Positions 9,924 to 57,198 of a DNA stretch of 64,000 bases are shown here, in pieces; position 1 is the first letter of the stretch, and each line of letters starts with the position of its first letter. This DNA is from an uncultured Planctomycetota bacterium (lineage in GTDB: Bacteria > Planctomycetota > Phycisphaerae > Sedimentisphaerales > Anaerobacaceae). The stretch spans positions 34,301 to 98,300 of the forward strand of contig CAVOUO010000020.1 of NCBI GenBank assembly GCA_963699595.1. Direction: 5' to 3'. A program made the position numbers and the translations under genes. A model generated the notes under the pieces. It saw only the letters and a list, made by a program, of their open reading frames with translations, searched no databases and had not been told where the DNA came from.

Positions 9924-9924
9924 C

Positions 9925-9982
9925 GGCGGGGCGTCTGATAAACCTCGTGACAGTGACGGCACCCCGCCGGCACGCGTTTTTT
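9925..9982 (+). terminator. Possible terminator after the ADH gene (bulged GC stem plus T6)
   Basis: ggcggggcgtc (9925-9935) pairs with gacggcaccccgcc (9955-9968) with a bulge. The T-run at 9977-9982 is 8 nt from the stem, so this is not canonical. Confidence 0.3.
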
Positions 9983-10086
9983 GCGATGCGCCCATGCCAC
10001 CGCAGGGAACTTGGTGAACCGTGTCGCCGTTCAGGAGTAGTGTGTATTGAATTGTTACAGCAGGACATCCTTGGAAAGGGTCGACT

Positions 10087-10662
10087 ATGGCAATGACCGC
10101 TTCAACGATGCTGCCGTTGGGGACGGAAGCGCCGGGCTTTACCTTGCCGGATACGGCGGGCAACCTGGTGTCCCTTACAGATTTCGACGAAGCCAAAGCG
10201 TTGGTGGTGGTGTTCATGTGCAACCACTGCCCCTTCGTCAAGCACGTCATCGACGGCCTCGTCAAGCTGGCGAAGAAATACCAGCCGCGCGGCGTGGCGT
10301 TCGTCGGCATCAATGCCAATGACGTGAGCGAGTTTCCGGAAGACCGGCCGGAGAAGATGGCCCAGTTCGCCCGCGAGAAAGGGTTCACGTTTCCCTATCT
10401 CTATGATGAGACCCAGGACGTGGCCAAGCGATCTCACGCGGCCTGCACGCCCGATTTCTTTGTATTTGACGAGAACCGAAGACTGGTTTATCGTGGGCAG
10501 ATGGACGACAGCCGGCCGGGGAGCAACGTGCCGGTCACCGGGGCCGATCTGCGTGCCGCCCTGGACGCCGTCCTGGAGGGTGAAACGGTTCCGGAAGAGC
10601 AGAAGCCGAGCATGGGCTGTAACATCAAATGGAAACCCGGCAATGAGCCGGACTATTTCTGA
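10087..10662 (+). CDS. Thioredoxin-fold redoxin (AhpC/TSA-like) family protein, first gene of the efflux operon
   Basis: APGFTLPDTAGNLVSLTDF...ALVVVFMCNHCPFVKH (CxxC)...FVGINANDVSEFPEDRPEKM...FTFPYLYDETQDVAK. Intact; 15 nt upstream of the next ORF. Confidence 0.75.
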   Translation: MAMTASTMLPLGTEAPGFTLPDTAGNLVSLTDFDEAKALVVVFMCNHCPFVKHVIDGLVKLAKKYQPRGVAFVGINANDVSEFPEDRPEKMAQFAREKGFTFPYLYDETQDVAKRSHAACTPDFFVFDENRRLVYRGQMDDSRPGSNVPVTGADLRAALDAVLEGETVPEEQKPSMGCNIKWKPGNEPDYF

Positions 10663-10677
10663 GGCCGTGAGCAAGGA

Positions 10678-17100: not shown

Positions 17101-18133
17101 TCTGGAGATCGTGGCCGATCGTCAGGCGCTGGCCCGCTACGGCATTCCCATCCAGCAATTCCAGGATGTCCTGGAGGTGGCTGTCGGCGGCATCAAAGTG
17201 ACGACCACCGTGGAGGGACGCCAGAGATTTCCCGTGCGGGTGCGGTACCAGCGGGAATTGCGCGATAACATTGAGGCTCTCGAAAGAGTGTTGGTTCCTA
17301 CACCGGATGGCGCCCAAATCCCCCTGATCCAGGTCGCCCAGATCCAGTACGTGCGCGGACCCGAAGTGATCAAGAGCGAGGACACGTCCCTGGTGGGTTA
17401 TGTCCTGTTTGACAAGGTGCCGGGGACGGCGGAAGTGGACGTGGTGGAGGCGGCCGGCCGGCTCCTCCGGGAGAAAGAGGCGAGCGGCGTGTTCCATCGA
17501 CCGGCGGGTGTCACCATCACCTTTGCCGGCACTTACGAGAACCAGCTCCACGCGGCCCAGACCTTGCGCATCCTCGTTCCTTTGTCCCTGTTCACGATCT
17601 TCCTGGTTTTGTACATGCAGTTCCGGAGCGTACCGACGACCCTGCTGGTGTTTCTGGGCGTCCTGGTGTCATGGTCGGGAGCGTTCCTGCTGCTGTGGCT
17701 ATACGGCCGGGATTGGTTCCTCAACTTCAGCGTCTTCGGTGTGGACATGCGGGAGCTGTTCCAAGTGCATCCCATCAATCTGAGCGTGGCCGTATGGGTC
17801 GGATTCCTGGCGTTGTTTGGCATTTCCGATGACGACGGCGTGGTGATGAGCACGTATCTGGACCAGACGTTCGGCCGGCGCCAGCCGCAGAGCGTGGCGG
17901 AAATCCGCGCAGTGACGCTCGAGGCGGGCCAACGCCGCATCCGGGCGTGCCTGATGACCGGGTCCACGACCATTCTCGCTCTGATTCCGGTCCTCACCGC
18001 GACCGGTCGAGGCTCCGACCTCATGGTTCCCATGGCGATCCCCTCCTTCGGCGGCATGACCATCGAGATGTTGACCATGCTGATCGTGCCCGTGCTGTAT
18101 TGCTGGCTGCGGGAGCGCAGAGTCGGCCGATGA
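14177..18133 (+). CDS. cusA: CusA/CzcA-family heavy-metal RND efflux pump, unusually long (1318 aa)
   Basis: Intact ORF. Sequence includes ILGFCIYNKLMVGLITLFLVAGGIY, DAIPDIGENQQIVFTEWPGRSPGDVEAQISYPLT, GIAIAVGAITDMGIVICDNI, FIPVFFMTGPEGKLFKPLAFTKTFAL, FMPPLDEGSFLYMPTTMP, GISDDDGVVMSTYL. Confidence 0.9.
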   Translation: MMPADANENKYEPLPEQQTLVGRILGFCIYNKLMVGLITLFLVAGGIYVAPFDWEFESFPRNPVAVDAIPDIGENQQIVFTEWPGRSPGDVEAQISYPLTTALLGIPNIKTIRSASMFGFSSIYIIFEDFSFFEKLVQGKDFYWTRSRVIEKLNSLPAGTLPAGVQPALGPDATALGQIFWYTLEGRDPDGNVTGGWDQEELRTIQDWQVRLALRSASGVSEAASVGGFVREYQVDVDPDAMRAYKVGIDEVFEAVRRSNIDVGAQTIELNRVEYMIRGLGFIKTVDDIEKSVIKTNNNVPVLVKHVAKVTLGPEPRRGVLDKQGAEVVGGVVVARYGSNPLAVIKNVKKTIAELGPALPAKAVVTDSKIASAQIQAFAQQHGFEAYEGGRLNQPVWQEYLRQTPQEQWPAWLTRSQVTLVPFYDRTGLIYETLGTLNADIYQEVLVTALVIIIMVMHLRSSILISSVMPLAVLGCFGIMKVFSVDANIVSLAGIAIAVGAITDMGIVICDNILRHLEESPPDMPRAEVIHRAASEVGSAIVSAMASTIISFIPVFFMTGPEGKLFKPLAFTKTFALFASIVLALTILPPAAHLLFFPRKIVGRYLRPALYGSLALAALLVGFAFSWLVAVAVIGFVAYQFFKGVMPHRVARLAPYLGNAVVLILVALLLTADWEPLGPQRGLVRNFIFVGGLIGILMTLVLSFQWFYPSILRWCLNHKAAFLSLPALLLVMGAMIWLGFDRVFAFVPETLRQNRLWAVAHHTFPGLGKEFMPPLDEGSFLYMPTTMPHASLGEALDILQKQNTAISSIPEIESVVGKIGRVESALDPAPIGMIETVINYRTEYITDKDGRRVSFRYDRAAGEFVRDPQGQLIPDAYGRPYRQWRDQMKTADDIWREIVAAAEIPGTTSAPKLQPIAARIVMLQSGMRAAMGVKIKGPDLETVEKVGFELERLLKEVPSIDPATVIADRIVGKPYLEIVADRQALARYGIPIQQFQDVLEVAVGGIKVTTTVEGRQRFPVRVRYQRELRDNIEALERVLVPTPDGAQIPLIQVAQIQYVRGPEVIKSEDTSLVGYVLFDKVPGTAEVDVVEAAGRLLREKEASGVFHRPAGVTITFAGTYENQLHAAQTLRILVPLSLFTIFLVLYMQFRSVPTTLLVFLGVLVSWSGAFLLLWLYGRDWFLNFSVFGVDMRELFQVHPINLSVAVWVGFLALFGISDDDGVVMSTYLDQTFGRRQPQSVAEIRAVTLEAGQRRIRACLMTGSTTILALIPVLTATGRGSDLMVPMAIPSFGGMTIEMLTMLIVPVLYCWLRERRVGR

Positions 18134-18891: not shown

Positions 18892-18995
18892 GATGAATCC
18901 CCGGAAAGTGATATGTTCGGAGCTGTCTGTGTGGCAAAAGAGTTTGCTGTGCCTAACTTTTTCGGGCTTGGTTGGGTCCCGGGGAGCGGGCGGAC

Positions 18996-19496
18996 ATGAG
19001 TAAGCCGAAGGTGGTTCTTGTCGGCAATCCGAATGTGGGAAAGAGCGTTCTGTTCCATAACCTCACGGGGGTGTACGCGACCGTGTCGAACTATCCGGGC
19101 ACGACGGTGGAAGTCGCCCGGGGCCTCGGCCGGGTCGACGCGCGCGAGTTCGAGGTCATCGACACGCCGGGGATGTACGCCCTGATGCCGATTTCCGAGG
19201 AAGAGCGGGTAGCCCGGAACATCATTCTGGAGGAAAGCCCGTCCGTCGTTCTGCAGGTGGTCGACGCCAAGAACCTGGAACGGATGCTGGGTCTGACGCT
19301 CCAACTTGTCGAGGCCGGCCTGCCCCTGATTTTGGTATTGAATATGATGGATGAACTGCGGGCTCTCGGCACGCGGATCAACATCGGCATCCTGGAGAAG
19401 CGTCTCCGTATTCCGGTGGTCCCGGTCATCGCCACCGACGGCGAAGGTATGGATCTGTTGAAACAGAGGATTCTGGATTATGTCGGGAAGTCTTGA
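18996..19496 (+). CDS. feoB: FeoB N-terminal GTPase (G) domain, as a separate ORF
   Basis: MSKPKVVLVGNPNVGKSVLFHNLTG (G1), YPGTTVE (G2), DTPGMY (G3), LNMMD (G4). It stops at 19494-19496 and overlaps the next ORF by 17 nt. Confidence 0.85.
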   Translation: MSKPKVVLVGNPNVGKSVLFHNLTGVYATVSNYPGTTVEVARGLGRVDAREFEVIDTPGMYALMPISEEERVARNIILEESPSVVLQVVDAKNLERMLGLTLQLVEAGLPLILVLNMMDELRALGTRINIGILEKRLRIPVVPVIATDGEGMDLLKQRILDYVGKS

Positions 19497-20949
19497 GGTC
19501 CAAACCCCTCTCCAGGATACGAGCGGGTCGGCGCTGGACCGTGCCGTGGCGCAGATCGAAGGTCTGCTGGCGGGCCGGTATGTGCTGTCGAAGCGGGCGA
19601 TCGCTCTGCTGCTGCTCCAGGACGATGAGCAGATTCGAGATCTGGTCCAGGCCCGAGATGCACGGGCCTATGAACAGATCGAGCGGCTTACCGCGGCAGC
19701 CAAGCAGTCCTACAGCGATCCTCTGGACTACGTTATTGCGATGCGCCGGCAACAGAAGATCAATGAGCTTCTCCGGGGTGCGATCGAGCCGGCGGGGGTC
19801 CGCAGGGGCAGCCTCACGGAGACACTGAGCCGCTGGACCATGCACCCGGCGACGGGGATTCCGATCCTCCTGCTGGTGCTTTACCTGGGGTTGTACAAGT
19901 TTGTGGGCCAGTTCGGCGCGGGCACCGTGGTAGATTTCCTCGAAAGCCATTTGTTCGACAGGCACATCAATCCGTTCCTGACCGAGGTGGTGGGGAGACT
20001 CACCTCCCAGCCGGCGCTGCGCGACCTGTTCGTCGGTGAGTACGGGGTCTTTACGCTGGGCCTGCGTTATGCCGTGGGGATTATTCTGCCGATTGTCACC
20101 GTCTTTTTCCTGATGTTCTCCGTCATCGAGGACGTGGGTTACCTGCCGCGGCTGGCGATGCTGATCGATCGGTTGTTCAAAAAGATCGGGCTGAGCGGCC
20201 GGGCGGTGATTCCCATGGTGTTGGGCCTGGGCTGCGACACGATGGCGACGATGGTGACCCGGACGCTGCCGACCCGGCGGGAGCGTTTCATCGCCACGAT
20301 GCTGCTGGCCCTGGCGGTGCCGTGCTCGGCGCAGCTCGGCGTGATCCTGGCGCTCCTGCACGGGCACCGGCTCGCGCTGGCCGTCTGGGCCGGCGTGATT
20401 GCTGCGGTCTTTCTGTTCGTGGGGTATCTGGCTTCGAAGCTGCTGCCCGGCACGCCGCCCATGTTCTACATGGAGGTTCCGCCGCTGCGGTTGCCCAAGG
20501 TGTCGAATATCTTCATCAAGACGTATACACGGGTGGTATGGTACCTGAAGGAGATCGTGCCGATCTTTATCGTGGCCAGCGTGCTGATCTGGATTGGGCA
20601 GGTGACGGGCCTCTTCGATTGGTGCATCGGCCTGTTGAAATATCCGGTTCAACTGATGGGGTTGCCGGTGGAGGCGGCCAGCGTGTTCTTGCTGGGCTTC
20701 TTCCGGCGGGATTACGGTGCGGCGGGACTGTACGACCTGAACGACGCCGGGGCGCTCACAGGCGTGCAATTGGTCGTGGCCTCCGTGGCCCTGACACTGT
20801 TCCTGCCGTGCATCGCGCAACTGCTGATGAACATCAAGGAACGCGGCATCAAAACGGGACTGCTGATCTCGGCGATCACGCTGCTTTTTTCCTTCGGGGT
20901 CGCCTTCACCCTGAACGCGGTCCTGCAGGCCGTGGGGGCGGTGCTATGA
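19480..20949 (+). CDS. feoB: FeoB helical (GDI-like) plus membrane permease domains
   Basis: Intact 489 aa starting at ATG 19480. Sequence includes THPATGIPILLLVLYLGLYKFVG, VFTLGLRYAVGIILPIVTVFFLMFSVIEDVGYLPRLAMLIDRLFKKIGLSGRAVIPMVLGLGCDTMA, LFLPCIAQLLMNIKERG. Confidence 0.85.
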   Translation: MSGSLEVQTPLQDTSGSALDRAVAQIEGLLAGRYVLSKRAIALLLLQDDEQIRDLVQARDARAYEQIERLTAAAKQSYSDPLDYVIAMRRQQKINELLRGAIEPAGVRRGSLTETLSRWTMHPATGIPILLLVLYLGLYKFVGQFGAGTVVDFLESHLFDRHINPFLTEVVGRLTSQPALRDLFVGEYGVFTLGLRYAVGIILPIVTVFFLMFSVIEDVGYLPRLAMLIDRLFKKIGLSGRAVIPMVLGLGCDTMATMVTRTLPTRRERFIATMLLALAVPCSAQLGVILALLHGHRLALAVWAGVIAAVFLFVGYLASKLLPGTPPMFYMEVPPLRLPKVSNIFIKTYTRVVWYLKEIVPIFIVASVLIWIGQVTGLFDWCIGLLKYPVQLMGLPVEAASVFLLGFFRRDYGAAGLYDLNDAGALTGVQLVVASVALTLFLPCIAQLLMNIKERGIKTGLLISAITLLFSFGVAFTLNAVLQAVGAVL

Positions 20950-38515: not shown

Positions 38516-40569
38516 TTGGAAAGCCGCAGGTCCGTGGCAGATTCCGGATGCAAATTCGAGATCGCAGGAAGCGTCAACGGCCCGGCGGAACGTCAAATTG
38601 CTGTGGGGCAGGCCAGAAGCGTGGCGAAGCAGAAAAGACCGGCGAACGCCGGAACAGAACGAAATGAAGGGCAGGGACCACCGAGACGTGGATTCGGACG
38701 CTTTCGCGGATGGCTTGGCTTGGGGGTCGTATTGGTCGCCACGGCGTTTCTGTATGCGCCGGCATTGAATCACCAATTCACGAACTGGGACGACGACCGG
38801 CAGATCACCGCCAATCCCGATATCCGCGACTTGTCGCCGCAGGGCATCGGGAAGATGTTCTCCAGCTTCTATGTCTCGCTCTATCAGCCGCTCACGTCTC
38901 TGTCCTGGGCGGTCGAGTACCGCCTCTTCGGACTCGATCCGCGCATCTACCATGCGGTCAACGTCCTGCTGCACCTGGTGAACATCGTGTTGGTCTACGT
39001 GCTGGTCCGGTCCCTATGCCAGAACGTGGGAATCTCCGTGGTCACGACGGCGCTGTTTGCGGTCCATCCCCTGCAGGTCGAGGTGGCGGCATGGGCTTCT
39101 TCGCGGAGCATTCTGCTGTCTTCCCTGTTCTACCTGGGGGCGATGATCGCCTACATCGCCTACGCCAAGTCCGGCAAGCTGCGCTACTTCGCCCTGGGGT
39201 TGGTGCTTTTCCTGCCGGCTCTGCTGGCCAAGACGACGGCGGCCACACTGCCGCTGGTGCTCCTGGTGATCGATCTGTACCTGGAAAGAAGGGTCAGCCG
39301 GCGGACCATCTGTGAGAAGATCCCCTTCTTCCTGCTGTCTATCGTCTTCGGGTGCATCACGATGCTGGCCCGCAGCGGCGTGAGCCATGTCCAGGATTTC
39401 GCGCTGAAGTACTCCCTGGTGCAGAGGATCTGCATCGTGTGCTATTCCTGCCTGTGGTACGTGGGCAAGCTGGTGTTTCCGGCGGGTCTTTCCGTCTTCT
39501 ATCCGTTTCCAGGCAAGCCGAACGGCTGGTTGCCCGTTGCCTTCTATCTGGCTCCCATGCTGCTGATCGGCCTGGCGGTGGGGATCTGGTACGCCGGCCG
39601 GTACCGCCGGCTGCTGGCCTTCGCGGCACTGTTCATGTTGGCCTCGTTGGTGCTGGTGGTCCAGATCGTACCGGTCAGCGAGCTGATGGTTTGCGACCGC
39701 TACGCGTACCTGCCCTGCATAGGGCTGTTCTTTCTGGCGGGGACTTTGGGCCACCGGCTGGGCTTGCGTAACCCGTCCTGGATGAGAGTGATGCTGGTCG
39801 TCACGGTGCTGGTCCTTGTTGCTCTTGGCGGTCTGACGTTTCAGCGCATCGGAGTATGGCACGATAGCACGACGCTCTGGAACGACTTCATCGGCAAGCG
39901 TCAGGATATTTACGTTGCCTATCTCAATCGCGGTTTGGCAGAGTACGAGGCCGGCGACCGCAAAGCGGCCATCGCCGATTTCGATGCGACCCTGCGACTC
40001 AACCCCAAGGTCGACAAGGCGCTGAACAACCGCGCGGCCGCCTATGCGGCCCTCGGCGACCGCTCGGCGGCCCTGCGTGACTTCGACGAGGCGATCCGGC
40101 TGAACCCCGGATAGCAGCTATCTCGTCAACCGGGGCATCCTGAAACGGGACATGGGGGACTTCGCCGGCGCCGTCGGAGATTTCGACACGGTCATCGAGC
40201 GTAATGCCGCGGAGTGTCAGGGCTCTGTGCGAAAGGGCGGACGCGTACCGGATGCAGGGGAATTGGGCCAAAGCCCGGGCGGACTATGAAGCTGTGCTGC
40301 GGCTCGATCCCAGTCACGTCTACGCGACTTTTCTCCTGGGGGCGGTATTGGTGCAAACAGGCGACAACGAGCAGGCCGTGACCATGCTGAACAAGGCCCT
40401 CACTCTGGGAGGCAAAGACCCGGCCCCGGCGTATTTCCTTCTGGCACAAGCCTATCGGAAGATGGGCCGGATGGACCTCGCAAAGGAGGCCCTGCGCCGT
40501 TCTCAAGAGCTGGGATATCGCGGGCCACAAATCCCACCGCGCCAAACGGAGGGACGCCAGCGACAGTAG
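38516..40569 (+). pseudogene. PMT_2/TMTC-like polytopic glycosyltransferase fused to C-terminal TPR repeats; at least 2 frame breaks near 40110-40200; start uncertain
   Basis: LGLGVVLVATAFLYAPALNHQFTNWDDDRQITANPDIRDL...YHAVNVLLHLVNIVLVYVL...AVHPLQVEVAAWASSRS... has about 10 hydrophobic segments. TPRs follow: YLNRGLAEYEAGDRKAAIADFDATLRLNPKVDKALNNRAAAYAALGDRSAALRDFDEAIRLNP. They continue in other frames (GILKRDMGDFAGAVGDFDTVIE; ALCERADAYRMQGNWAKARADYEAVLRLDP...). Confidence 0.65.
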
Positions 40570-46698: not shown

Positions 46699-47463
46699 AT
46701 GTACAGGAATCGAACCAATTGCGGCGTGTGGCGCGGGGCCAGTTCACTTTCGCACAGAAGGTCTTGGGGGGGCACTCCCGTCTGGCTCTCGGCCCTCGTG
46801 GCGGTTGTCCTGCTCGTTACGGCGGGCGTCGCCTATCGTGCGATGGCAGCCCGCTTGTTCGGCGGTGCCCTCACCCCCGTGAAATTGCCCGTTCCGTTGC
46901 AGCAAGTGCCGGAGCAGATCGGCGGCTGGGCGGGGCAAGACCGGCCGATTCCCGAAAACATCCTGGCCTATATGAAACAAAACTTCGCGGACGATTATGT
47001 CAGCCGCCGGTACGCCAACGAGAAGGAGGGAGTCTGGGCGGATCTCTATGTCGTGTATTGCTCGTCTCGCCCCGGAGGCATCCTGGGACATCAGCCGCGG
47101 GTGTGTTTCCCGGGCAACGGCTGGATTCACGATGAGACGACATCCTCCCAAATTGTCTCCGGCTCGGGCCGTCCGATCGACTGCCTGGTGCATCGCTTTC
47201 ACAACCCGGCTTACCAGCAGGTGGTCGTCGTGAATTTCTATGTTCTCAACGGGCAGATCACGCTGAACGAGCGTGATTTCTCGGGCTTCTGGGGCCGACG
47301 ACCGAACCTCTCCGGAAATCCGGCCCGTTACGTGGCCCAGGTTCAGATCAGCTCGAACCTCGAGCATTCGGCGCGAACCGCGGCCGCGCAAATGGCGGAT
47401 ATCCTCCTGGCGTTTCTGCCGGGTCCAAAGGATCATGCCACTGCGACCCCCGGCGGGAATTGA
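46699..47463 (+). CDS. EpsI-family (exosortase-associated) protein
   Basis: N-terminal TM WLSALVAVVLLVTAGVAY, then VPEQIGGWAGQDRPIPENILAYMKQNFADDYVSRRYANEKEGVWADLYVVYCSSRPGGILGHQPRVCFPGNGW. This matches the remembered EpsI pattern (W.G.D...DD...R.Y...Y...H.P..C.PG.GW). Confidence 0.65.
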   Translation: MYRNRTNCGVWRGASSLSHRRSWGGTPVWLSALVAVVLLVTAGVAYRAMAARLFGGALTPVKLPVPLQQVPEQIGGWAGQDRPIPENILAYMKQNFADDYVSRRYANEKEGVWADLYVVYCSSRPGGILGHQPRVCFPGNGWIHDETTSSQIVSGSGRPIDCLVHRFHNPAYQQVVVVNFYVLNGQITLNERDFSGFWGRRPNLSGNPARYVAQVQISSNLEHSARTAAAQMADILLAFLPGPKDHATATPGGN

Positions 47464-49111
47464 CCGCTTCGTATGGCGTCGTCGAGTGGAAATCAGCAAG
47501 CGCGTTGTCTTGATCAACACCGCCAGCGTGGTGTTGGCGCGGGTGATCAATCTGGCGGTAGTGTTGTGGCTGAACGCCCATCTGCTGCGCCGGATCAGCC
47601 CGGAAGAATTGCAGCTCTGGCCCTTGCTGATGTCGGTCATCGTTCTCCTGCCTTTGTTTACGTCGATCTTGACGTTGGGCATCGGCCGGTTCGTGCTGGC
47701 GGCGTACGCGACAGGGGATGACCGCACCGTGACGCAAATTGTCTCCACGATGTTCCTGCCGTTGCTGGGCGCAGCCGCCATCATCCTGACCGGAGGATTG
47801 ATCCTCGCGTGGCACATCGACAAAGTCCTGGTCGTGCCGGCCGGACAACTCTGGGATGCGCGGATCATGATGGCGCTGCTGATCTTTGCGGCGGCCGTCA
47901 AGCCGCCCTGCACGGCATTCAGCGTGGGGTTCTTCGTGCAGCAGAAGTTCGCCTTGTACAATGGCATTGGGATCGTCAACGAGCTGCTGCGCGTCTTTCT
48001 GTTAATCGTTTTGCTCGTCGGGGTCAGCACGCGTGTCCTGTGGGTGGTCGTCGCCAACGTAGCCACCGAGCTGGTCCTCACCGTGGTTCTGCTCCTGATG
48101 TCCCGGCGCATGATTCCGGCCTTACGGTTCCGGGTCCGGGAGATCCGGTGGGAGAGGGCGCGGGAGGTCGTGTCCTTCGGGGGCTGGAACGTCCTGGGCA
48201 CCATGGCCGTTCGGATGCGCGAGACGGCGGTCCTGCTGCTCTTGAACTGGCTGGCCACACCGATGGATGTGGTGGTCTTCAACCTGGGGTACCTGGGCCG
48301 GCGCCAGATCGATGCGTGGTCGGACGTTCTGGGGGGGCCCCTGTATCCGGTCGTGACCAGTATGCATGCCATGGGGGCGAAGGATCGGATTCGCGCGATC
48401 TATGTGCGAGGCGGGCGCATTGCCTTGTGGATTCTGCTCATGATCGCACTGCCGGCCGCCCTCTACGCCGAACCCATCATTCGCCTGTACGCCACCAAGA
48501 CTTATCTGGAGGCGGCGGTCGTCATGGTCCTGACCCTGGGGGGGCTTCCGGTCGCGTGCGGAGCGTGGATGATCTGGCAAGTGGCCAGTGCCACGGACCG
48601 CCTTCGACCCACGAGCCTGTACGTCCTGGCGACCCAGGCCGCCATCGTGGCGCTGGTCATCTGTGCCGTGCGCCTGTTGGGATGGGGCGCCTCCGGCGTG
48701 GGTCTGGCCGCTTTCGCCGTGGAGTTCGTCGTGGAGTTCCTGGTGCTGTGGCCCTTGGGGCTGAGGCTGGCCGGTGCGACATTCGACGCGTGGGTGCGCG
48801 AAGCCCTGATCCCCGGCCTGACACCGGGCTGCGTCGCTTCGGTCGTGTGGGCGGCGTTGGCGCTCATCGTCAGGCCGGATAGTTGGGTGGCGGTCGGCCT
48901 GTGTACGGCCGCCGGCCTTCTGTGTTACTGGGCGGTACTGCTGGTATTCTGTTTGGAGCCGCGCGATCGGGAGGACTTGACGAAACTGGTCGCGCGACTC
49001 GGGGATTCTCTACGGTCGCCGTTCGGGGTGCCCCCGGCGACTCCGGTCCATTCCCGCGCGAGTGTCGAATCCGCTTCGCGACCGGCCGTGCCGCAAGACC
49101 ATCGTGGTTGA
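47435..49111 (+). CDS. Polysaccharide flippase (MOP/Wzx-like, multi-TM)
   Basis: Intact ORF; ATG 47435 overlaps the EpsI end. About 12-14 hydrophobic segments, e.g. LINTASVVLARVINLAVVLWLN, LFTSILTLGIGRFVLAAY, GGWNVLGTMAVRMRETAVLLLL, IALWILLMIALPAALY. Confidence 0.6.
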   Translation: MPLRPPAGIDRFVWRRRVEISKRVVLINTASVVLARVINLAVVLWLNAHLLRRISPEELQLWPLLMSVIVLLPLFTSILTLGIGRFVLAAYATGDDRTVTQIVSTMFLPLLGAAAIILTGGLILAWHIDKVLVVPAGQLWDARIMMALLIFAAAVKPPCTAFSVGFFVQQKFALYNGIGIVNELLRVFLLIVLLVGVSTRVLWVVVANVATELVLTVVLLLMSRRMIPALRFRVREIRWERAREVVSFGGWNVLGTMAVRMRETAVLLLLNWLATPMDVVVFNLGYLGRRQIDAWSDVLGGPLYPVVTSMHAMGAKDRIRAIYVRGGRIALWILLMIALPAALYAEPIIRLYATKTYLEAAVVMVLTLGGLPVACGAWMIWQVASATDRLRPTSLYVLATQAAIVALVICAVRLLGWGASGVGLAAFAVEFVVEFLVLWPLGLRLAGATFDAWVREALIPGLTPGCVASVVWAALALIVRPDSWVAVGLCTAAGLLCYWAVLLVFCLEPRDREDLTKLVARLGDSLRSPFGVPPATPVHSRASVESASRPAVPQDHRG

Positions 49112-51401
49112 CGACGGGTGAGGACGGGCGTTCGCCCTCCGCTCGAAATCGCACTTCCGTGAGCGCCGCGTCGCAGGCGACGGCGGCTGCGACGCCGAGC
49201 ACCGCATATCTTCCCGGAAATAGAGCTGCCGGCTCGGAGGTTGCCCCCGAGCCGGCAGGATCGAATCCATCAGGCAGGACCGGCTCAAGCCCTCGAAGAC
49301 GTTGCAACGTCTGCGGGCCTGCACTTCTATGCGTTCATGCCTTGTCCCGGCCTGCCGGAGCCTTTTCTTCGATCGCGGCACCGCAGAATCATCATGATGA
49401 TGCCAAGGGCGGCGCAGGGCACGAGCAACTGGCTCGGCGCAGCCCTCCCCACTCGGAGAAAGGGCGCAGCCGCCGGCGGCACCCGTGCCGGTCGCGGCAC
49501 CGGCCGCATCGGCATCGACCAGATAGAACGGCGTGAAGTGCGTCGTCCGGAACTGCAGCGCGCTCAACCTGGTGGAGATATAGAGGTTCTGGACATCTGT
49601 GATCCCCTGTTGACTGAGCGCCCCGGTCACGGAATCGTACCAGTAGGGCAGGATGCGTCGCTTGCCGGTGGAGGTGGTGTACGGAATGGTTACCGTCACC
49701 GCGCTGCTCGAAGTTGGAGCCGCTGGGCCCGAAGTCGTAGCTTCCCAGCAGAGCCTCGCTCGAGATCTGCGGATTGAGGATCCGGGAGATGGCCATGCGG
49801 AGGTCCGCCTGGCAAGCTCCGGCCGGCACAATGATCGATACGTCTTCCGGCCCGTTGATGGCGGCCGGGTCGGTTCCGATCGTGGCGCCTGCCGAGGCCA
49901 CGACCACTTTCGAGTCCAACGGGTTGGGATCGATGAGCGTGGTCGCGGCACTATAGATCTCCGTCGTGGTTCTGCGGTAATCCGTCCAAACCAGATACGG
50001 CTCGCCGTAGCGATCCACGCCGATGGCGGGGTCGCCCTGGTTGGCGTTCGTGCCGTCGTCACCGACGAGGATGTTGGTCCCGGCCGTCCCGGACCGCAGT
50101 TCGGCAACGTACAAGTCCGTGTCAGTGTCCGTGGCGCCGGTATGACGCCAGTCAGTCCAGCAGGCGAAGACCCGCTGGTCCGGGCCGCAGACGACGGCCG
50201 GTGCGGTCTGGTCTGGCGCCGGAGGTGTCGTCGCTGATGCTGATGCCGGCTCACGGGACTGCTCGGCAGACCGTTCAGCGCGGCGTAGCAGACCTCTGTG
50301 TTGCCGCTGCTGTTGTCCACCCACAGCAGGTGCAGGACGGTTCCCGCCCCGGCCGCCACGGCCGGCTGGGTCTGCTCGGCCAGGCCCGGTCACGACCGGC
50401 ACATTGGGCCAGCCCGCCGATGTTGGAGGCAGCGGCATAGATATCCGCCTGGCCGTTCCTCATGTCCGTCCAGAAGACGTAGGCAACGTTGTCGGCGTCG
50501 ACCGCCAGAACCGGTTCTTTCTGGTCCGCGGCGTTGTTCGTGATCTGCGACACCAGTGGACGTGGCAAAGGCATTGGTGGAGCTGGCCGCGTAGATGTCC
50601 TGGTTGCCGTTGCGGTCATCCTGCCAGGCCGACGTAGACGCGGCTCGGCGACTGATGATCGACGGCCAGCGCGGGATTGATCTCGTGGTGCGTGGAATCC
50701 GTGACCCGTACCTCTTTGGTGAAAGTCGCCCCATCCGAACAGATGGCGGCGTAGATATCCCAGTTGCCATTGCGATTGTCCTGCCAGACCACGTACACGG
50801 CGCCCGTCGCACTGACGGCCAGCGCCGGATTGCACTGGTCGCGCCTGTCTGCGGTGAGCCGAATAGGTACTTGGAAGGTACTGGCGTCAAACGCCCGTTT
50901 CGCGATGTAGATGTCCCGGCTGCCCACGGCCCCGGTGTGCCAGGCCACCCAGAGGTTCCCGGCGGGATCGCTCGCCGCGGCCGGCTGGCTGTCGGCATAA
51001 CCTCCCGCGGTGCTGACCGACCGGTTCTTGCCGAAGGCCCGCATTTCCGTCGTGAAGGAGATCTGGCACTCGCTCATGACATTTCCCGCCTGGTCGGCGG
51101 CATTCACGCGGACGGCCACCGTCTGGTCGAAGCCGAACATCGCATTGGGCTGGTAGATGAACCGATAATCATTCTTCGTGCCGGAACGGCTGCATTGGCC
51201 CTTTGCGCTCGTGTAGACGGCCATGTTGCCCTGGTAGACGACGTTGCCATCGACCCGAATCGCCACGGAATTGGCGTCCACGCCGGAGTTGGCGTCGGTG
51301 ATATGAAGCGTCACCAGGTTGTTCAAGGGCACTTGAATGGCGTCCGGGGCCGGCGACCACTGGACCACCGCCGGAGCAATCTGATCGTTCAGAACGCCGG
51401 A

Positions 51402-53677
51402 CACGGTGAGGCTGACCGTCTCGGAGTCCGTAAGCTGGCCATCGCTGACGGTGAAGGTGACCGGATAGGTGCCGGTCTGGCTGGACGCGGGTGTCCAGGC
51501 AAAGGTCTGACCCGTCAGCGCGGCGCCGCTGGGCAGCGCACCGGCGGAATAGGTCAGACTATCTCCGTCCGGGTCGGTCGCCGAGAGGACGAAGCTCAGG
51601 GGCTTGGTCGCGTCCACCGTCCTGCTGCCGATGGCGGCCAGAATCGGCGGTCGGTCCACATGGACGACGGTAATGGTGATGGTCTGTGAGGTCTGCAACT
51701 GGCCGTCACCGGCGGTGAACGTCACGTCATAGCGGCCGGCCTGGGTGTAGGTCGGCGTCCAACTGAACGTCGGACCGGTCAGACCCGCGCCCGTAGGGAG
51801 ACTCGTGGCCGAATAGGTGATGGGATCGTTGTCGGCATCCGTGGCACTGATCGTGAATGTCAGAGCCTGATTCTCACTGGCCGACTTGTTCCCGATGACG
51901 GCCAGGACCGGAGCCGCGTTGGGCTTCGCCACGGTGATCGTGCTGGACTTGGAATCCTGGGCCGTGCCGTCACTGACCGTGACCGTGACCGTGTAGCTGC
52001 CGGCCTGAGTGGCGCCGGGCGTCCACGTGAACGTCTGCCCGGAGAACGTGGCGCCGCCGGCAGGCCGGAGGCCGAGTAGGTCAGAGCGCCGCGGCCGCCG
52101 GTGGCACTAACCGTGAACGTCAAAGTCTGGCCCACGGTCGCCTGCTGATTGCCGATGGAGGCCAGCACGGGAGCCGTGCCGGTCGCGGCCGGCCAGACGG
52201 GACCGCATTGGGCTCGATACGTATCCCACATGTTCGCGGTGAAATTGCTCATCGACCGCCACCAACCGGCGTACTCTCCGCCGGGGGCCGTAAAGGCCAT
52301 GTACCGATCCGTATAGTCGAAGAAGGCGTCGTGATTCCACCGAGCCTTGCCGCCGGGAGTCAGCAGGGCCGCCAGGGCCGTGCCGTGGAAAGGCGGACAG
52401 GCCACCGCGCGGTACTCCGTCGGAAGCCACTTGTTGCTCAGCTCCGGGTTGCTGGAATGCCGAATTCCCCACTCGGGCAGCCCGAGATCGGAGCTGCTGT
52501 ACGGAATCCGCTGGGCATCCCGGGAATCCGGATTCCAGGTGGGGCCGTTCGTGACGCTGACATCGAGCGAGGCCACGTAGAAGGTCTGGTCATCCTCGCC
52601 GAAGTGCACATAGCCGGGCGGATTGTGGGCAGGCCCATAGCCGGTCTGATAGAGAGAATCCCCGGATTGGGCGCCGATGGATTCCATGTCGGTATCGTGG
52701 AGGGCCAGGCCGGCAAAGAGGATGGGCCACTTGCGACCGCCCGCGTGACCGCCGTCATTGAACCAATGCCAGCTACCGCCGTTGGCCACGACCCCGTAGA
52801 GGTCGATCCCCAACTGCACGTACCGGATGAAGAGAGTCTCCTTCTGGGCGTTCGTGAAGTTCAGATGGAGCATCAGGGCGCCGATCCCGATGTTCGTATG
52901 CATCTCGCGCCCGTAGTCGGGCATGTTGAGGCTCGGGTGCTGGTACCGGGCCACCCAAGTCCCCTGGTGGTCGATCCACGGCGCGGCGAACATCGCCTCC
53001 ACGCTCGCCAGCGTCGGTGTCTCGGCGACCGGCGCGAGGGACTTGAGGAGCGAGTAGTTCAACGCGGATTTGTCGAACTTGATCGTTTTGTCCGAGCCGG
53101 AGTATGGAGGCCGGAAACTACCGGCTGCGGCGGGGGAAGTCAAGACCGTCAGAACGGCCGCCCGCTGCAACTGCGGCAGGCTGCCCGCGGCATCCAGGCT
53201 GATCGTCGACACGAGGGACGAATGGGCCGCCAGGACCAGGGGGTTGCTGCTGGACCGGCTGTAGGCCACGTTCAGGGCCGCATCGTAGGTGTTGGAGGGC
53301 ATCGAGTTGTCATACCCCTGGCTGGCATTGCCCGGCACGGGGTTGAGCATCGAGCCATTCCTGATCCGGCCGCTCACCAGCGTGGACGGCGGGTTGATGC
53401 CAATAATCTTGACGGGCCCGACGACCCAGAAATCCCGGTTGGCAAACTGGCCCACCGGGTAGGTGGTGTCGAACGTCCACGTAATGCCGAATTGCTGCAG
53501 GGCACTCGCCCGATAGGAGACCTGGGTAGGCCAGGGGGCGGCGTACGCGGCGGCATCCGCCGACTGGATGATAATCGTGTCGCCGCTGGCGGCGGCGGAT
53601 TGCACCTTGGTCAGGGTCTGCCAGGGGGCACTGCTCGTGCCGGGATTGCTGTCGTTGCCGCTGGCCGTGTTGAGGTA
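51402..53677 (-). repeat. Intragenic tandem duplication, copy 2
   Basis: Starts ATYYLNTASGNDSNPGTSSAPWQTLTKVQ and ends ...TFTVSDGQLTDSETVSLTV. The period is about 2.3 kb. Confidence 0.8.
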
Positions 53678-56000
53678 GTAGGTGGCGGCCGCCACCGGCG
53701 GCTGGTCCACGCCCACGACGGTGATCGTGATCGTCCGGGAGGTCTGCAACTGACCGTCGCTGGCCGTGAACGTCACAGTGTAGCTGCCCGCCTGGCTGGA
53801 GGTAGGCGTCCAGGCAAAGGTCTGGCCCGTCAGCGTGGCGCCGCTGGGCAGCGTGCCGGCGGAGTACGTCAAACTGTCTCCATCCGGGTCCGTCGCCGAC
53901 AGCGTGAAGGTCAGCAGGCTGCTGACATTCACCGACCGGTCAGTGATGTCGGCCAGAACCGGCGGCCGGTCGGTGTTGGCCACGGTGATCGTGATTGTCT
54001 GCGAGGTTTGCGTTTTCCCGTCACTGGCAATGAACGTCACGTTGTAACTGCCTGCCTGGGTGTAGGTCGGGGTCCAACTGAAGGTCGGACTGTTCAGACC
54101 CGCGCCGGCGGGCAAGCCCGTGGCGGAATACGTGATCGGATCGTTGTCGGCATCCGTGGCACTGAGCGTGAACGTCAGCGCCTGATTCTCACCCGTCGAC
54201 TTGTTCCCGATGGTCGGCCAGGACCGGAGCCGAGTTGGGCTTGATCACGGTGATCGTGATGGTCTCGGAATCCTGGGCGGTACTGTCCCGGACCGTGAAC
54301 GTGACCGTGTAGCTGCCGGCCTGGGTTGCCCCCGGGGTCCACGTGAACGTCTGCCCGGAGAACGCGGCGCCGGCCGGAAGCCCGGAGGCCGAGTAGGTCA
54401 GAGTGCCGCTGCCACCCGTGGCGCTGACCGTAAACGTCAGAGTCTGGCCCGTTGCCACCTGCTGATTGCCGAGGGGGGCCAGGACGGGAGCGCTACCGCC
54501 GGTGGCCGGCCAAACGGGTCCCAATTGGGCTCTATAGGTGTCCCACATGTTCGCGGTAAACCCGCTCATCGACCTCCACCAGCCGGCGAATTCCCCCCCG
54601 GTGGCCGTGAAGGCCATATACCGGTCCGCATAATCGAAGAAGGCGTTGTGATTCCACAAGGCTTTGCCGCCGGGAGTCAGCAGGGCGGCCAGGGCCGTGC
54701 CGTGGAAGGGCGGACCCGCGACGTTGCGATACTCCGTGGGAAGGTACTTGTTGCTCATCTCCGGGTTCGTGGCGTGCCGAATCCCCCACTCGGGCAGCCC
54801 GATATCGGAGGTGCTGTACGGAATCTTCACGGCATCCCGGGAATCCGGATTCCACGTGGGGCCGTTCGTGACGCTGACATCGAGCGACGCCACGTGGAAG
54901 GTCTGGTCGTCCTCTCCGAAGTGCAGATAGCCGGGCGGATTATTGCCGGGCCCATAGCCGGTTTGATAGAGGTAATCCCCGGATTTGGCGCCGACGGATT
55001 TCATGGCGGCGTCATTGAGGACCATACCGGCAAAGAGGATGGGCCACTTGCGTCCGCCCGCGTGACCACCGTCATTGGCCCAGTGCCAACTGCCGCCGTT
55101 GGTCAGGATCCCGTAGAAGTCGATACCTAATTGCACATACCGGATGAAAAGGGTTTCCTTCTGGGCGTTCGTGAAGCTCAGATGGAGCATCAGGGCGCCA
55201 GTTCCGATGTTCGTATACATCTCGCGCCCATAATCAGGCATGTTGAGGCTCGGGTGTTGATACCGAGCGACCCATCCCGCCTGATGGTCGATCCACGGTG
55301 CGGCAAACATGGCCTCCACACTGGCCAGTGCCGGCGTCCCGGAGACCGGCGCGAGCGACTTGAGCAGCGTGTAGTTCAGCGCGGACTTGTTGAACTTGAT
55401 CGTCTTGTCCGTGCCACAGTACGGGGGCCGGAAGCTGCCGGGTGCGGCAGGGGAAGTCAGAACGGTCAGGACGACGGCCCGCTGCACTTGCGGTAGGCTG
55501 CCCCCCGCATCCATACTGATCGTCGACACGAGGGACGAATTCGCCGCCAGGACGAGGGGGTTGCTGTTGGACCGGTTATAGGCCACGTTCAGGGCCGCAT
55601 CGTAGGTGTTGAAGGGCATCGAGTTGTCATACCCTTGGCTGGCATTGCCGGGCACGGGGTTGAGCATCGAGCCGTTCTTGATCCGGCCGCTGACCAGCGT
55701 GGACGGTGGATTGATTCCGACGATCTTGACGGGTCCGACGACCCAGAAATCTCGGTTGGCAAACTGGCCGACAGGGTAGTCGGTGTCGAACGTCCAAGTG
55801 ATGGCGAATTGCTGAAGGACGCTCGCTCGGTAAGAAACGTGGGTGGGCCAAGGGGCGGCGTACGTGGTGGCGTCCGCCGACTGGATGACGATCGTGTCGC
55901 CACTGGCGGCAGATTGCACTTTGGTCAAGGTTTTCCAGGGGGCACTGATGGTGCCGGGATTGCCGTCGCTGCCGCTGGTCGTATTGAGATAGTAGGTGGC
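53678..56000 (-). repeat. Intragenic tandem duplication, copy 1 (uncharacterised domain + 3 Ig-like domains)
   Basis: Starts ATYYLNTTSGSDGNPGTISAPWKTLTKVQ and ends ...TFTASDGQLQTSRTITITVVGVDQPPVAA. It is about 85 percent identical (by eye) to copy 2 at protein level. Confidence 0.8.
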
Positions 56001-56110
56001 GGCGCTTGCCAGTGCCTGTACCCCCAGGCAGTACGACAGCACCGCCGCGACGCCAAGACGGCGATAGCACACGGTGATTCGGCACTAAGGGATGATCGCT
56101 GTGACTACGG

Positions 56111-56193
56111 GTTTCCATGTTACTGCTCTCGGTGCTACTACGTTCGATGTTGCTGCTTTCCATGCTATTACTTACTTTCTTATGTTCCTTGTT
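56111..56193. repeat. Degenerate ~15-bp tandem repeat (4-5 units) 40-120 nt upstream of the giant gene start
   Basis: Units: gttactgctctcggt / gctactacgttcgat / gttgctgctttccat / gctattacttacttt, with flanking related units. Local GC is clearly below the window average. Confidence 0.55.
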
Positions 56194-57198
56194 ACTCTGT
56201 GCGACGTTGTCTCCCTTATTCGTACCTTACGTGACTCTTCTCCAATCAAAATCCACGATGTTCGTAGGTTACACAACAATTCTGCAATCAAAACCTACAA
56301 TATAATATAAAGGAGTCGCCAAAAGACGTGAGCGCGTCCACAAACGACCACGGACTCGGTGGTCTGTGGACCTTCGGTTGGCGGTGCAGAGGCAGGGGCC
56401 GGGAGGGCATCCCATTGCCCGAGGCGAGCCGCGGAACACATTGTCTTCCATGCCGTGGCAACGTCTTGATCCTGTGACTTACATCTTTTATATCTGGACA
56501 AGAGGATCGCGACATGATACAAAAAAGAATTGTGAGAGAGTTTTTGTGGAGATGGATGGGGGTCACGCCCATTGATGGATCTCAGGAACACTGTGCGGTC
56601 AGGCATTTTCGGCCTGTCAATGCACTCGTGGGGGCATGCGCTATGCTCAGAACATCAGGTCCTCTGGAATCCGTGGCGCAGCAAGTCATCCTCATCGACT
56701 CTGGTGATCTCTGTCATAACCCCTGCTCTTATCGATACTTAAGTTGAGACACGCACTCGGTCCGGCACATGAGGAGCCGCCCGGCTGCGAGCAGGGTCCG
56801 ATAGTCCATCTGCCGTCAAGACTATAATCTATGTAGGAATTTCCTGACCGCAGATGCAGGCAACGGCGTGCCGGGAGCGGTTTTTCGGCCGAAAACCGGC
56901 CTTTTCAATGCTTCTGGAAGGTACGAGGCGTAGTTGGAAATGCCTAATTTGCAGGTCATTGTAAGACGATACAATCGTCGGGCGCTCAAGTGCCGTACCT
57001 GGCCATGCTGTTATTGGCGGCCGGTTGGATGCTGTCTTGCGCACCGGCAACTGTGAGTTGGATATCGCCGCAAGGTCTTACCCTTCACGGAGTTGCGCAT
57101 GTCCAGGATGACAACCGACGGGGACGGAGTCTGACCGGGCCTGGGTGTGGCCGATCTACGCCAAAGGTTCGGAACATCGGTGCTGGGACGGCTCGCCC

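Follow-up and report, generated by a model that had tools for sequence, protein, structure and literature searches.

The minus-strand gene at 49327 to 56072 of the window (the whole 64-kb stretch of DNA that was analysed) encodes a giant surface protein that ends in a real and strongly conserved C-terminal tail. Directly downstream of the tail gene, related genomes have a protease gene and then a complete GspC-K operon. With moderate confidence, we interpret the tail as a Cys-type signal that sorts or anchors a large secreted surface protein and is processed by a myxosortase-like protease on a type II secretion system (T2SS) route. The tail probably sends the protein to the cell surface, and an exosortase probably does not act on it. 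The gene and its tail contain the following features.

49327 to 56072, minus strand: the whole gene, encoding a surface protein of ~2,240 aa, from Pfam and NCBIfam matches, a GC3 frame plot and tblastn with the L002 orthologue.
49510 to 49940, minus strand: ZU5-like β-sandwich directly before the tail, from AlphaFold and Foldseek, with T-T-H-F-T on the last strand (H-F-T at 49532 to 49540).
49327 to 49474, minus strand: C-terminal tail made up of the GGC motif, a spacer, a helix, a basic cluster and the stop (GGCALSPSGEG[S]PSQLLVPCAALGIIMMILRCRDRRKGSGRPGQGMNA), from the sequence, the tail HMM and the homologues.
49466 to 49474, minus strand: Gly-Gly-Cys motif, followed by A-L-S, with the Cys codon at 49466 to 49468; G, G and C are invariant in alignments A1, A2, A3 and A4.
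49384 to 49428, minus strand: hydrophobic transmembrane segment LLVPCAALGIIMMIL, with a Pro at 49417 to 49419 that is invariant in all tail alignments.
49363 to 49383, minus strand: basic cluster RCRDRRK, in which the Asp at 49372 to 49374 is an invariant column.
49440, no strand assigned: single extra G that shifts the frame within the tail, placed to 1-2 nt, a 1-nt insertion relative to the homologue L004.
49704 to 50631, no strand assigned: six further single-base insertions, at ~50631, 50555, 50379, 50251, 50216 and 49704, from alignment to the intact L004.
~54189 to 54244 and ~52056, no strand assigned: additional frame changes, from the GC3 frame plot and tblastn with the L002 orthologue.

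As assembled, frame 0 reads APSQLLVPCAALGIIMMILRCRDRRKGSGRPGQGMNA up to the stop at 49327 to 49329, and frame 2 reads ...FYLVDADAAGAATGTGAAGGCALSPSGEG and continues into non-membrane sequence. The original prediction held that one frame correction was needed here, and a nucleotide alignment with L004, an intact homologue that is 83% identical, locates it as a lone extra G at ~49440. Deletion of this base gives the C-terminus ...GGCALSPSGEGSPSQLLVPCAALGIIMMILRCRDRRKGSGRPGQGMNA before the stop and restores GEG-S-PSQLL, which matches homologues such as P0001 and P0002. The extra G is most likely an assembly error.

In the corrected tail a hydrophobic helix of ~15-18 residues is preceded by a Gly/Ala/Cys motif and followed by an Arg/Lys cluster, and P-E-P is absent. 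Both the tripartite, sorting-signal-like architecture and the GGC in place of P-E-P had been predicted, and both extend beyond this gene: a search with the stitched C-terminus found the same tail on 53 of 60 homologues, with G-G-C, Pro and Asp invariant. The family consensus from the GGC Cys onward is C-[SA]-[ILVM]-S, and that of the basic cluster is [RK]-x-R-D-x-[RK]. From the positive-inside rule, the RCRDRRK cluster is predicted to be cytoplasmic. AlphaFold models residues 227-252 of P0002, the equivalent of the tail helix, as helical with a pLDDT of 86-91.

A tail HMM was built solely from the tails of database homologues, with the window sequence left out. The corrected window tail scores 67.4 bits on this HMM, against 40.2 bits for the uncorrected frame-0 piece (49330 to 49563) and 10.2 bits for the frame-2 piece. 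No second tail was found in the six-frame translation of the 64-kb window by regular expression or HMM, all else scoring at most ~5 bits. A search of 1.84 billion representatives with the tail-only HMM gave 166 matches, nearly all of them at the extreme C-terminus (median distance to the protein end, 4 residues); of the 142 matches examined, 82 are proteins 1,000 aa or longer. When a word-indexed database was searched with the tail-only profile, only short fragments of the tail-protein family were returned.

The full protein consists of a signal peptide (VCYRRLGVAAVLSYCLGVQALASA, cleaved before Ala), a pectate-lyase-like β-helix, He_PIG/Big_9/PKD Ig domains, a propeller-like region, WxDxRNGxxDIY repeats, the ZU5-like domain and the tail. 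The ZU5-like domain is modelled with a pLDDT above 90 (residues 60-200 of P0002). Its best Foldseek matches are the ZU5 domains of ankyrin, UNC5b and ZO-1 together with GAIN domains, at a probability of 1.0, and the target-normalised TM-score to ankyrin ZU5 is 0.55-0.61; Pfam ZU5 matches for this domain are faint. The His of the H-F-T motif is invariant and the Thr is at least 90% conserved. The motif, an HF[TS] strand just upstream of the tail, occurs in 127 of 131 informative matches and lies 19-42 residues before the Cys.

The gene is split by at least nine frame changes, which are most likely assembly errors. If they were real, the gene would be a dead pseudogene in the source genome and the tail a relic that is never made. 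This would fit the clustering of seven single-base insertions within 1.3 kb, next to intact genes of 2-4 kb, as well as the broken copies on the related long contigs P0057, P0058, L002 and L003. We regard a pseudogene as unlikely. All of the lesions are +1 insertions, and GC3 is high in each local frame. Once corrected, the stretch aligned to L004 is a stop-free open reading frame with 109 synonymous and 113 non-synonymous codon differences, near-equal counts that indicate purifying selection. FeoB in the same window is split too. The broken relatives lie on contigs named in the style 'contig_NNN', which we infer to be long-read assemblies, whereas the copies in short-read MAGs are intact.

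The known models of sorting signals were compared with the tail. The window tail has no match in NCBIfam or Pfam even at E≤10. Two NCBIfam sorting-signal models alone, MYXO-CTERM and JDVT-CTERM, match several homologue tails; both are of the Cys type, and their matches span almost the full model length. MYXO-CTERM (TIGR03901) matches 3 of 32 homologue tails with a best E of 2e-4, and the best tail in single scans reaches 14.4 bits against a cutoff of 20. JDVT-CTERM (NF033191) weakly matches 16 of the 32 tails, the best at 17.5 bits against a cutoff of 27. Isolated and weaker matches were obtained for Loki-CTERM (two tails) and for the archaeal PEF-CTERM model TIGR03024 (one tail, E = 0.48, 10.7 bits against a cutoff of 23). 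None of the 32 tails matches a bacterial PEP-CTERM model in NCBIfam or Pfam or the Synerg-CTERM model, and neither the window tail nor the homologue tails match GlyGly-CTERM in NCBIfam at E≤10. An undescribed signal had been proposed, and none of the PEP-CTERM, GlyGly-CTERM, MYXO-CTERM and JDVT-CTERM models captures the tail above threshold. The tail has the tripartite MYXO-CTERM-type design with an invariant Cys, that is, G-G-C, then the helix, then the basic cluster.

Support for a partner enzyme comes from 85 related loci, all from Planctomycetota and mostly from Phycisphaerae. In 52 of them, counted by BLAST directly against a genuine CPBP, the gene directly downstream of the tail gene encodes a CPBP/Rce1-like protease of ~250 aa (73.9 bits on the Rce1-like family PF02517, cutoff 22.4). 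For all 41 proteases scanned, the best NCBIfam matches belong to the myxosortase family (MrtP, Mrt_core, MrtC, MrtS and MrtJ). The cutoffs of these models are not reached by the CPBP protein of locus L036, which scores 84.5 against 100 for Mrt_core (NF040914), 91.8 against 250 for MrtP and 61.4 against 75 for MrtJ; the score on MrtS is 63.9 against 130. Alignment A6, of 41 sequences, shows EExxxR, FxxxH and HxxxN without exception, and across all 52 proteases these motifs are conserved to 98% or more. Beyond the protease, GspC-D-E-F-G-I-J-K continues in 38 of the 40 loci with enough downstream sequence. A reciprocal test compared 20 metagenomic genes closely related to the protease with 58 distant CPBP genes: a tail lies immediately upstream of 11 of the former and none of the latter; ~40% of the close relatives do not adjoin a tail gene. 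Curated models currently accept neither the tail nor the CPBP protease subfamily, and for this reason the genes are labelled 'hypothetical' or, loosely, 'MYXO-CTERM domain-containing'.

The 64-kb window itself contains the substrate gene with its EpsI and flippase neighbours, and no protease, T2SS or exosortase gene. CPBP-like tblastn matches at 49.7-51.0 kb were rejected, being alternative-frame ORFs inside the big gene. Because none of these partners lies in the window, the protease is assumed, not seen, for the source genome: we take it and the T2SS to be encoded elsewhere, as in genomes with an unlinked second copy. The design of the tail does not differ between genes that adjoin the protease and genes elsewhere, and seven or more genomes have one copy of each kind.

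Whether other proteins of the genome share the tail had been set as a test that could refute a sorting signal. The outcome is near negative and resembles the one-client JDVT-CTERM case: the tail occurs on one or two homologous proteins per genome, almost never on unrelated ones, and all of them are in Planctomycetota MAGs. Because it is nearly always found on one protein family (127 of 131), it could be a conserved part of the protein and not a portable signal. The tail might then be a permanent, uncleaved type I membrane anchor in which GGC, Pro and Arg-Asp serve intramembrane contacts or the polysaccharide machinery (e.g. EpsI or the flippase), any release of the ectodomain occurring by autoproteolysis at the ZU5-like H-F-T. 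Such an anchor would account for the essential restriction of the tail to one family, always after a ZU5-like domain, and for a conservation within and beyond the helix that is unusually high for a mere signal. It would also agree with the resemblance of the ZU5/GAIN-like fold and the invariant His-Phe-Thr to self-cleaving, stalk-attached modules (PMC3210808; PMC3482391), and with the lack of a nearby protease in the window and the other class II loci. It leaves unexplained, however, why 52 loci carry, directly downstream of the tail gene, a Rce1-like gene that is catalytically intact by its motifs and itself precedes a T2SS operon. A dedicated T2SS would also be pointless for a protein that stays in the inner membrane. 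We therefore consider a permanent anchor quite unlikely.

If the tail is a Cys-type signal, as we favour, the N-terminal signal peptide would carry the protein across the inner membrane, where the C-terminal helix LLVPCAALGIIMMIL would retain it with RCRDRRK on the cytoplasmic side. The invariant Cys of GGC-[SA]-[ILVM]-S, ~15 residues outside the helix, would be modified, probably by lipid. The helix and the basic tail would be removed by the myxosortase-like CPBP/Rce1-type glutamic intramembrane protease, and the T2SS would then bring the lipid-anchored protein to the cell surface.

Two plus-strand genes that neighbour the tail gene are convergent with it.

46699 to 47463, plus strand: EpsI-family protein with an N-terminal transmembrane segment and a periplasmic DUF3485 domain (TIGR02914/PF11984 family).
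47465 to 49111, plus strand: 13-TM MOP/MATE-superfamily flippase-like protein, from thirteen hydrophobic segments and a profile search.

The EpsI neighbour named in the original prediction is genuine, with 45.7 bits on TIGR02914 (cutoff 42.8). The 13-TM protein has no Pfam match. Its candidacy as a hidden exosortase was rejected, since a profile of 17 orthologues matches MATE/MOP flippases in the PDB with an E of 1e-7. The flippase-like gene is co-oriented with EpsI and lies beside it in 22 loci.

The linkage of EpsI to the tail-protein cassette is conserved: an EpsI orthologous to that of the window lies upstream of the tail-protein/CPBP/T2SS cassette in 27 of the 29 loci with enough upstream sequence. 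The original prediction had suggested that the tail and this EpsI may represent a signal/sortase pair. The linkage part of that claim stands, but the partner is probably the CPBP protease together with the T2SS, not an exosortase. For the tail to be a divergent exosortase signal, E-x-x-x-P would have to take the place of P-E-P and an exosortase would have to work with EpsI. The conserved EpsI neighbour in the cassette loci and the window could be read in this way, as could the EpsI-exosortase pair found 0.3-6 kb downstream of the tail gene in nine protease-less loci (exosortase at 193 bits on PF09721), and the loci are of the polysaccharide-synthesis type in which exosortase systems occur. Against this, P-E-P is absent and no PEP-CTERM-type model matches; neither the window nor any of the 52 cassette loci contains an exosortase. 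The window EpsI is 45-64% identical to the EpsI proteins beside CPBP/T2SS cassettes and only 25-34% identical to exosortase-linked ones, and it falls in a subfamily that has no exosortase next to it. Together with the invariant Cys, the neighbouring CPBP protease indicates a different class of enzyme, and an exosortase signal is very improbable.

To our knowledge, EpsI-family proteins have so far been found only as a partner or domain of exosortases. A bolder proposal, possible but doubtful, is that these loci constitute an undescribed Phycisphaerae surface-display cassette in which EpsI would work in a CPBP-based route that bridges the exosortase and myxosortase systems. The cassette would combine a giant β-helix/Ig/ZU5 protein bearing a new Cys-type signal (GGC...E-x-L-L-P-Y...R-x-R-D), a new subfamily of myxosortase-like CPBP proteases and a dedicated T2SS, with self-cleavage at the ZU5-like H-F-T preceding lipid anchoring.

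We are aware of Cys-type C-terminal signals handled by Rce1-like proteases as a recently recognised class, with experimental support in Myxococcus only. The described Cys-type systems come from Myxococcota, Bradymonadales, some Pseudomonadota, Synergistota and Thermococcales. Should the Cys-type reading be correct, the mechanism extends to Planctomycetota, and the role of an EpsI-family protein where no exosortase is present becomes a question. The loci would also serve as a clean test case in which a single client gene, a single protease gene and a single T2SS operon adjoin one another, and the new conserved positions (the intrahelical Pro and the Arg-Asp after the helix) may help to define recognition by the protease.

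The ZU5-like fold before the tail is shared with the ZU5/FIIND/GAIN modules of PIDD, CARD8/NLRP1 and adhesion GPCRs and of bacterial surface proteins (PMC3482391). PIDD (HFS) and CARD8 (cut between F and S in SFS) self-cleave at a motif that corresponds in position and type to the conserved His-Phe-Thr/Ser on the last strand here, a likeness based on motif conservation. The literature searched does not describe such a domain together with a Cys-type sorting tail. With the PEP-CTERM/exosortase/EpsI systems the loci have in common the EPS setting, the EpsI-family neighbour and the tripartite shape of the tail. They differ in having no PEP motif, model match or cassette exosortase, and in their invariant Cys and adjacent CPBP protease.

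MrtX cleaves MYXO-CTERM in a Cys-dependent manner, and the product surfaces through the T2SS (PMC11980579). MYXO-CTERM occurs on dozens of unrelated clients per genome and is reported only from Myxococcota and Bradymonadales, the latter being the source of MrtP (Haft 2023, 10.1101/2023.06.07.544157). The tail resembles the MYXO-CTERM signals of MrtX, MrtC and MrtP in its invariant Cys after a Gly-rich stretch, its transmembrane helix and its basic cluster. The best matches of the neighbour protease are myxosortase models, and surface delivery by the T2SS is established for MYXO-CTERM. In contrast to the many unrelated MYXO-CTERM clients, which are not linked to the protease gene, there are one or two homologous clients here, in Planctomycetota MAGs, and the scores stay below the cutoffs (tails at most ~14 bits against 20; protease 84.5 against 100 for Mrt_core).

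Synerg-CTERM is accompanied by a dedicated T2SS, and JDVT-CTERM clients adjoin MrtJ (Haft 2023, bioRxiv 10.1101/2023.06.07.544157). Like Synerg-CTERM/MrtS, the loci studied here combine a Cys-type signal with a CPBP protease and a lineage-specific T2SS; the lineage and the motif differ, the protease reaches 63.9 of the 130 bits required for MrtS, and no tail matches the model. JDVT-CTERM differs in its nearly invariant Asp-Pro nine residues after the Cys, whereas the Pro of the tail lies ~16 residues after it in the context [LVI]-P-[YF]. The taxa also differ (Pseudomonadota for JDVT-CTERM, Planctomycetota here), and scores on its model are at most 17.5 bits against 27. The clients described here are also all homologous, with a T2SS operon and an EpsI gene within the locus. 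What is shared with JDVT-CTERM/MrtJ is the tripartite Cys tail with conserved intrahelical residues that include a Pro, one or a few clients per genome, and a client gene directly beside a CPBP/Rce1-like protease, an arrangement seen in the 52 related loci and not in the window. JDVT-CTERM is also the NCBIfam signal model most often matched. Most likely, the tail is a tripartite signal of the Cys-containing class whose described members are MYXO-CTERM, JDVT-CTERM and Synerg-CTERM.

The window has a G+C content of 62.7%, and the tail feature lies on its minus strand. A three-frame translation of the tail region shows that frame 2 reads ...TTHFTPFYLVDADAAGAATGTGAAGGCALSPSGEG and then turns into arginine-rich nonsense, and that frame 0 reads APSQLLVPCAALGIIMMILRCRDRRKGSGRPGQGMNA and reaches a stop at 49327-49329. 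In a GC3 frame plot frame 0 takes over from frame 2 as the coding frame at the tail, with several further switches upstream. The single frame correction of the original prediction is therefore needed for the tail, but the whole gene needs many.

When the stitched C terminus (308 residues) was used as a query, 60 homologues were recovered, and 53 of them have a C-terminal tail of this kind. The closest intact homologues, database proteins P0001 (83% identity) and P0002 (85%), carry the tail GGCAISPSGEGSPSQLLVPYAAIGVIMMILRRRDRRK. The consensus is GGGGGC-[SA]-x-S-x-x-G-x-G-S-x-x-E-[FL]-L-[LV]-P-Y-(hydrophobic)-L-[RK]-x-R-D-x-R-x-R, in which G, G, C, P, and D are invariant among the homologues. 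Nucleotide alignment with L004, the contig encoding P0001 (83% nucleotide identity to the window), revealed seven single-base insertions in the window, at about 50631, 50555, 50379, 50251, 50216, 49704, and 49440. Deleting them gives a stop-free frame that ends ...GEGSPSQLLVPCAALGIIMMILRCRDRRKGSGRPGQGMNA before the stop codon. On an HMM trained exclusively on database tails, the corrected tail scores 67.4 bits; across all six frames of the window, nothing besides two uncorrected pieces of the same tail exceeds ~5 bits. The homologue tails, the corrected frame, and the HMM score confirm the predicted tail.

Relative to the L004 homologue, the corrected frame differs synonymously at 109 codons and non-synonymously at 113, a substitution pattern that suggests purifying selection. 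Codon bias is kept within each local frame, all lesions are +1 insertions, and no stops remain once these are corrected. The FeoB gene of the window is also split:
18957-19496, ORF with FeoB_N
19480-20949, ORF with Gate/FeoB_C
Together these observations point to assembly errors, not decay. The clustering of seven insertions, and no single-base deletions, within 1.3 kb beside intact genes of 2-4 kb is odd and speaks for a real pseudogene in this genome, a question orthogonal to the type of signal; given the lesion type, the retained bias and substitution pattern, and the split FeoB, we consider it unlikely. The same gene is broken in L002, L003, P0057, and P0058, related long contigs whose names follow a "contig_NNN" pattern. 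Polishing may have been confused by paralogous copies.

A tblastn search with the orthologue from L002, a 7.5-Mb contig, together with Pfam scans showed that one gene spans 56072 to 49327 and that its frame also changes around 54189-54244 and around 52056. From the N terminus, the encoded surface protein consists of:
signal peptide, VCYRRLGVAAVLSYCLGVQALASA|A
pectate-lyase-like right-handed β-helix, with weak Pel9A-like and DUF1565 matches
several He_PIG/Big_9/PKD Ig domains
a run of WxDxRNGxxDIY repeats
C-terminal β-sandwich and Gly-rich linker, then the tail
The upstream region 56073-57100 contains T-rich, repetitive-looking sequence (GTTACTGCT, GTTGCTGCTTTCCATG...), and its G+C content is markedly lower (0.568 for 56-58 kb versus ~0.63).

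An AlphaFold model of P0002, computed with 47 aligned sequences, has a pLDDT above 90 for the sandwich and of 86-91 for the tail helix. A Foldseek search of the PDB with the sandwich returned the ZU5 domains of ankyrin, UNC5b, and ZO-1 as well as GAIN domains, all with probability 1.0, which places one further feature in the window:
~49510-49940 (-), ZU5-like domain (AlphaFold/Foldseek)
The last strand of this ZU5/GAIN-like fold carries T-T-H-F-T (H-F-T at 49532-49540 (-)), in which the His is invariant; some relatives have H-F-S. PIDD (HFS) and CARD8/NLRP1 (SF|S) cleave themselves at sites that match the conserved H-F-T/S in position and motif. It would be unusual for a putative self-cleaving module to stand directly before a sorting signal.

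The tail-only HMM, searched exhaustively against 1.84 billion cluster representatives (E ≤ 1e-3), gave 166 matches, nearly all at the extreme C terminus; 82 of the 142 examined are in proteins of at least 1,000 residues. The H-[FLYMC]-[TSG] motif of the ZU5-like domain is situated 19-42 residues before the Cys in 127 of 131 informative matches, and only four short sequences (P0138, P0151, P0187, and P0191) have other upstream sequence. Genomes carry one or two copies. In essence, the tail is therefore a module fixed to a single protein family. When GTDB representative genomes were scanned with a profile, 80 loci were obtained; with three exceptions, they are labelled Planctomycetota (Phycisphaerae, Sedimentisphaerales, Phycisphaerales, "uncultured Pirellulales"). 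The exceptions, in MAG bins labelled Actinomycetota, Pseudomonadales, and archaeon (L005, JAMDEO010000170.1; L062; L065), are probably mis-binned short contigs.

To compare the tail with known signals, NCBIfam release 20 and Pfam were searched with 32 tails. None of them matched a PEP-CTERM or GlyGly-CTERM model, and the window tail itself had no match of any kind. JDVT-CTERM matched 16 of the 32 (best 17.5 bits, cutoff 27) and MYXO-CTERM three (best E = 2e-4; best score in ten single scans 14.4 bits, cutoff 20), both in alignments covering nearly the full model. On these sub-cutoff matches, the tail resembles Cys-type tripartite signals without belonging to any modelled family. The stretch that begins with the invariant Cys, C-[SA]-[ILVM]-S (49457-49468 (-), where the window has C-A-L-S), resembles an internal CaaX box, the motif cleaved after prenyl-Cys by eukaryotic Rce1, a homologue of the CPBP protease family; this likeness may be coincidence. 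JDVT-CTERM has Asp-Pro 9 residues past the Cys (Haft 2023, bioRxiv 10.1101/2023.06.07.544157), whereas the invariant Pro of the Phycisphaerae tail is ~16 residues past it.

The gene neighborhood is the decisive evidence. All ORFs of 85 loci were clustered, and the counts were redone by direct BLAST. Directly after the tail gene, 52 of the 85 loci encode a protein of ~250 residues that matches PF02517 (Rce1-like, 73.9 bits) and, as best NCBIfam models, MrtP (91.8 bits), Mrt_core (84.5, cutoff 100), MrtC, MrtS, and MrtJ (61.4, cutoff 75), a ranking identical in all 41 members scanned. Neither tail nor protease passes curated NCBIfam cutoffs. The catalytic motifs EExxxR, FxxxH, and HxxxN are invariant in a 41-sequence alignment of the proteases and at least 98% conserved across all 52. 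Where enough sequence is available, GspC, D, E, F, G, I, J, and K follow the protease gene (38 of 40 loci), and an EpsI-family gene lies upstream and divergent (27 of 29). The gene after EpsI often encodes a 13-TM protein, a MOP/MATE-type flippase according to a profile search. In the complete Phycisphaerales chromosome L047 (CP070678.1), the big-protein family is represented twice within 6 kb, on opposite strands:
8396-11650 (+), big-protein gene followed by a CPBP gene, no adjacent T2SS operon
15108-17615 (-), second big-protein gene

The arrangement of tail gene, protease, and T2SS, with EpsI upstream, defines class I. Class II loci, among them the window and L001-L005, its nearest relatives, carry this tail as well, with neither protease nor T2SS nearby; at least seven genomes have one locus of each class. 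By tblastn, neither the class I protease nor any Gsp protein or exosortase was found in the 64-kb window, whose only multi-TM ORFs by Pfam are AcrB, FeoB, a TPR membrane protein, and a flippase-like protein. In the reciprocal direction, the protease profile detected 22 close relatives on metagenome contigs. The tail is immediately upstream in 11 of the 20 with upstream sequence, compared with 0 of 58 distant CPBP genes. Close relatives on the contigs L088, L089, L095, L097, L099, and L102 (46-55% identity) have no upstream tail gene; a sizeable minority of genomes therefore keep protease and client apart, as that of the window must do too.

To our knowledge, EpsI, the conserved partner in these loci, has until now been tied to exosortases. 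These genomes (window, loci L007-L084) contain two EpsI subfamilies, one of them paired with an exosortase. Such a pair lies downstream in nine class II loci (exosortase, 193 bits on PF09721). The second subfamily, that of the window, is found beside the cassette of tail protein, CPBP protease, and T2SS, usually followed by the MOP-type flippase, and no exosortase was found within the neighboring sequence seen. That the tail is an exosortase substrate is a very improbable reading. Two window genes can be noted here:
46699-47463 (+), EpsI, 45-64% identical to class I cassette EpsI and only 25-34% to exosortase-linked EpsI
38516-40114 (+), 532-residue protein with nine predicted TM segments and C-terminal TPR repeats
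Because its EpsI is closer to cassette EpsI, the window holds the EpsI-flippase pair and client gene of the cassette, rearranged in convergent order and minus the protease-T2SS half. The membrane part of the 532-residue protein matched no Pfam family at E ≤ 0.01; its position in a polysaccharide locus suggests that it may be polymerase or ligase-like.

Adjacent protease, dedicated T2SS, and single client combined make a Cys-type sorting signal processed by a myxosortase-like protease the most likely reading of the tail, and a reasonably probable one. A permanent anchor, with which the class II loci would agree, is rather improbable beside this combination. For the sorting signal, the protease would be supplied in trans in the window's genome and, by analogy, the client would be lipidated on the tail Cys, cleaved after it, and exported by the T2SS. 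In the full-text literature we found no paper linking CPBP proteases or C-terminal sorting signals to Planctomycetota, which the Haft preprint (bioRxiv 10.1101/2023.06.07.544157) does not mention. Published systems serve as the model for this reading: MrtX performs Cys-dependent cleavage of MYXO-CTERM, with display of the product via the T2SS (PMC11980579); JDVT-CTERM clients adjoin MrtJ, and Synerg-CTERM has its own T2SS (bioRxiv 10.1101/2023.06.07.544157). In the Phycisphaerae arrangement traits of these systems come together: the protease is adjacent, the T2SS is dedicated, and there is one client.
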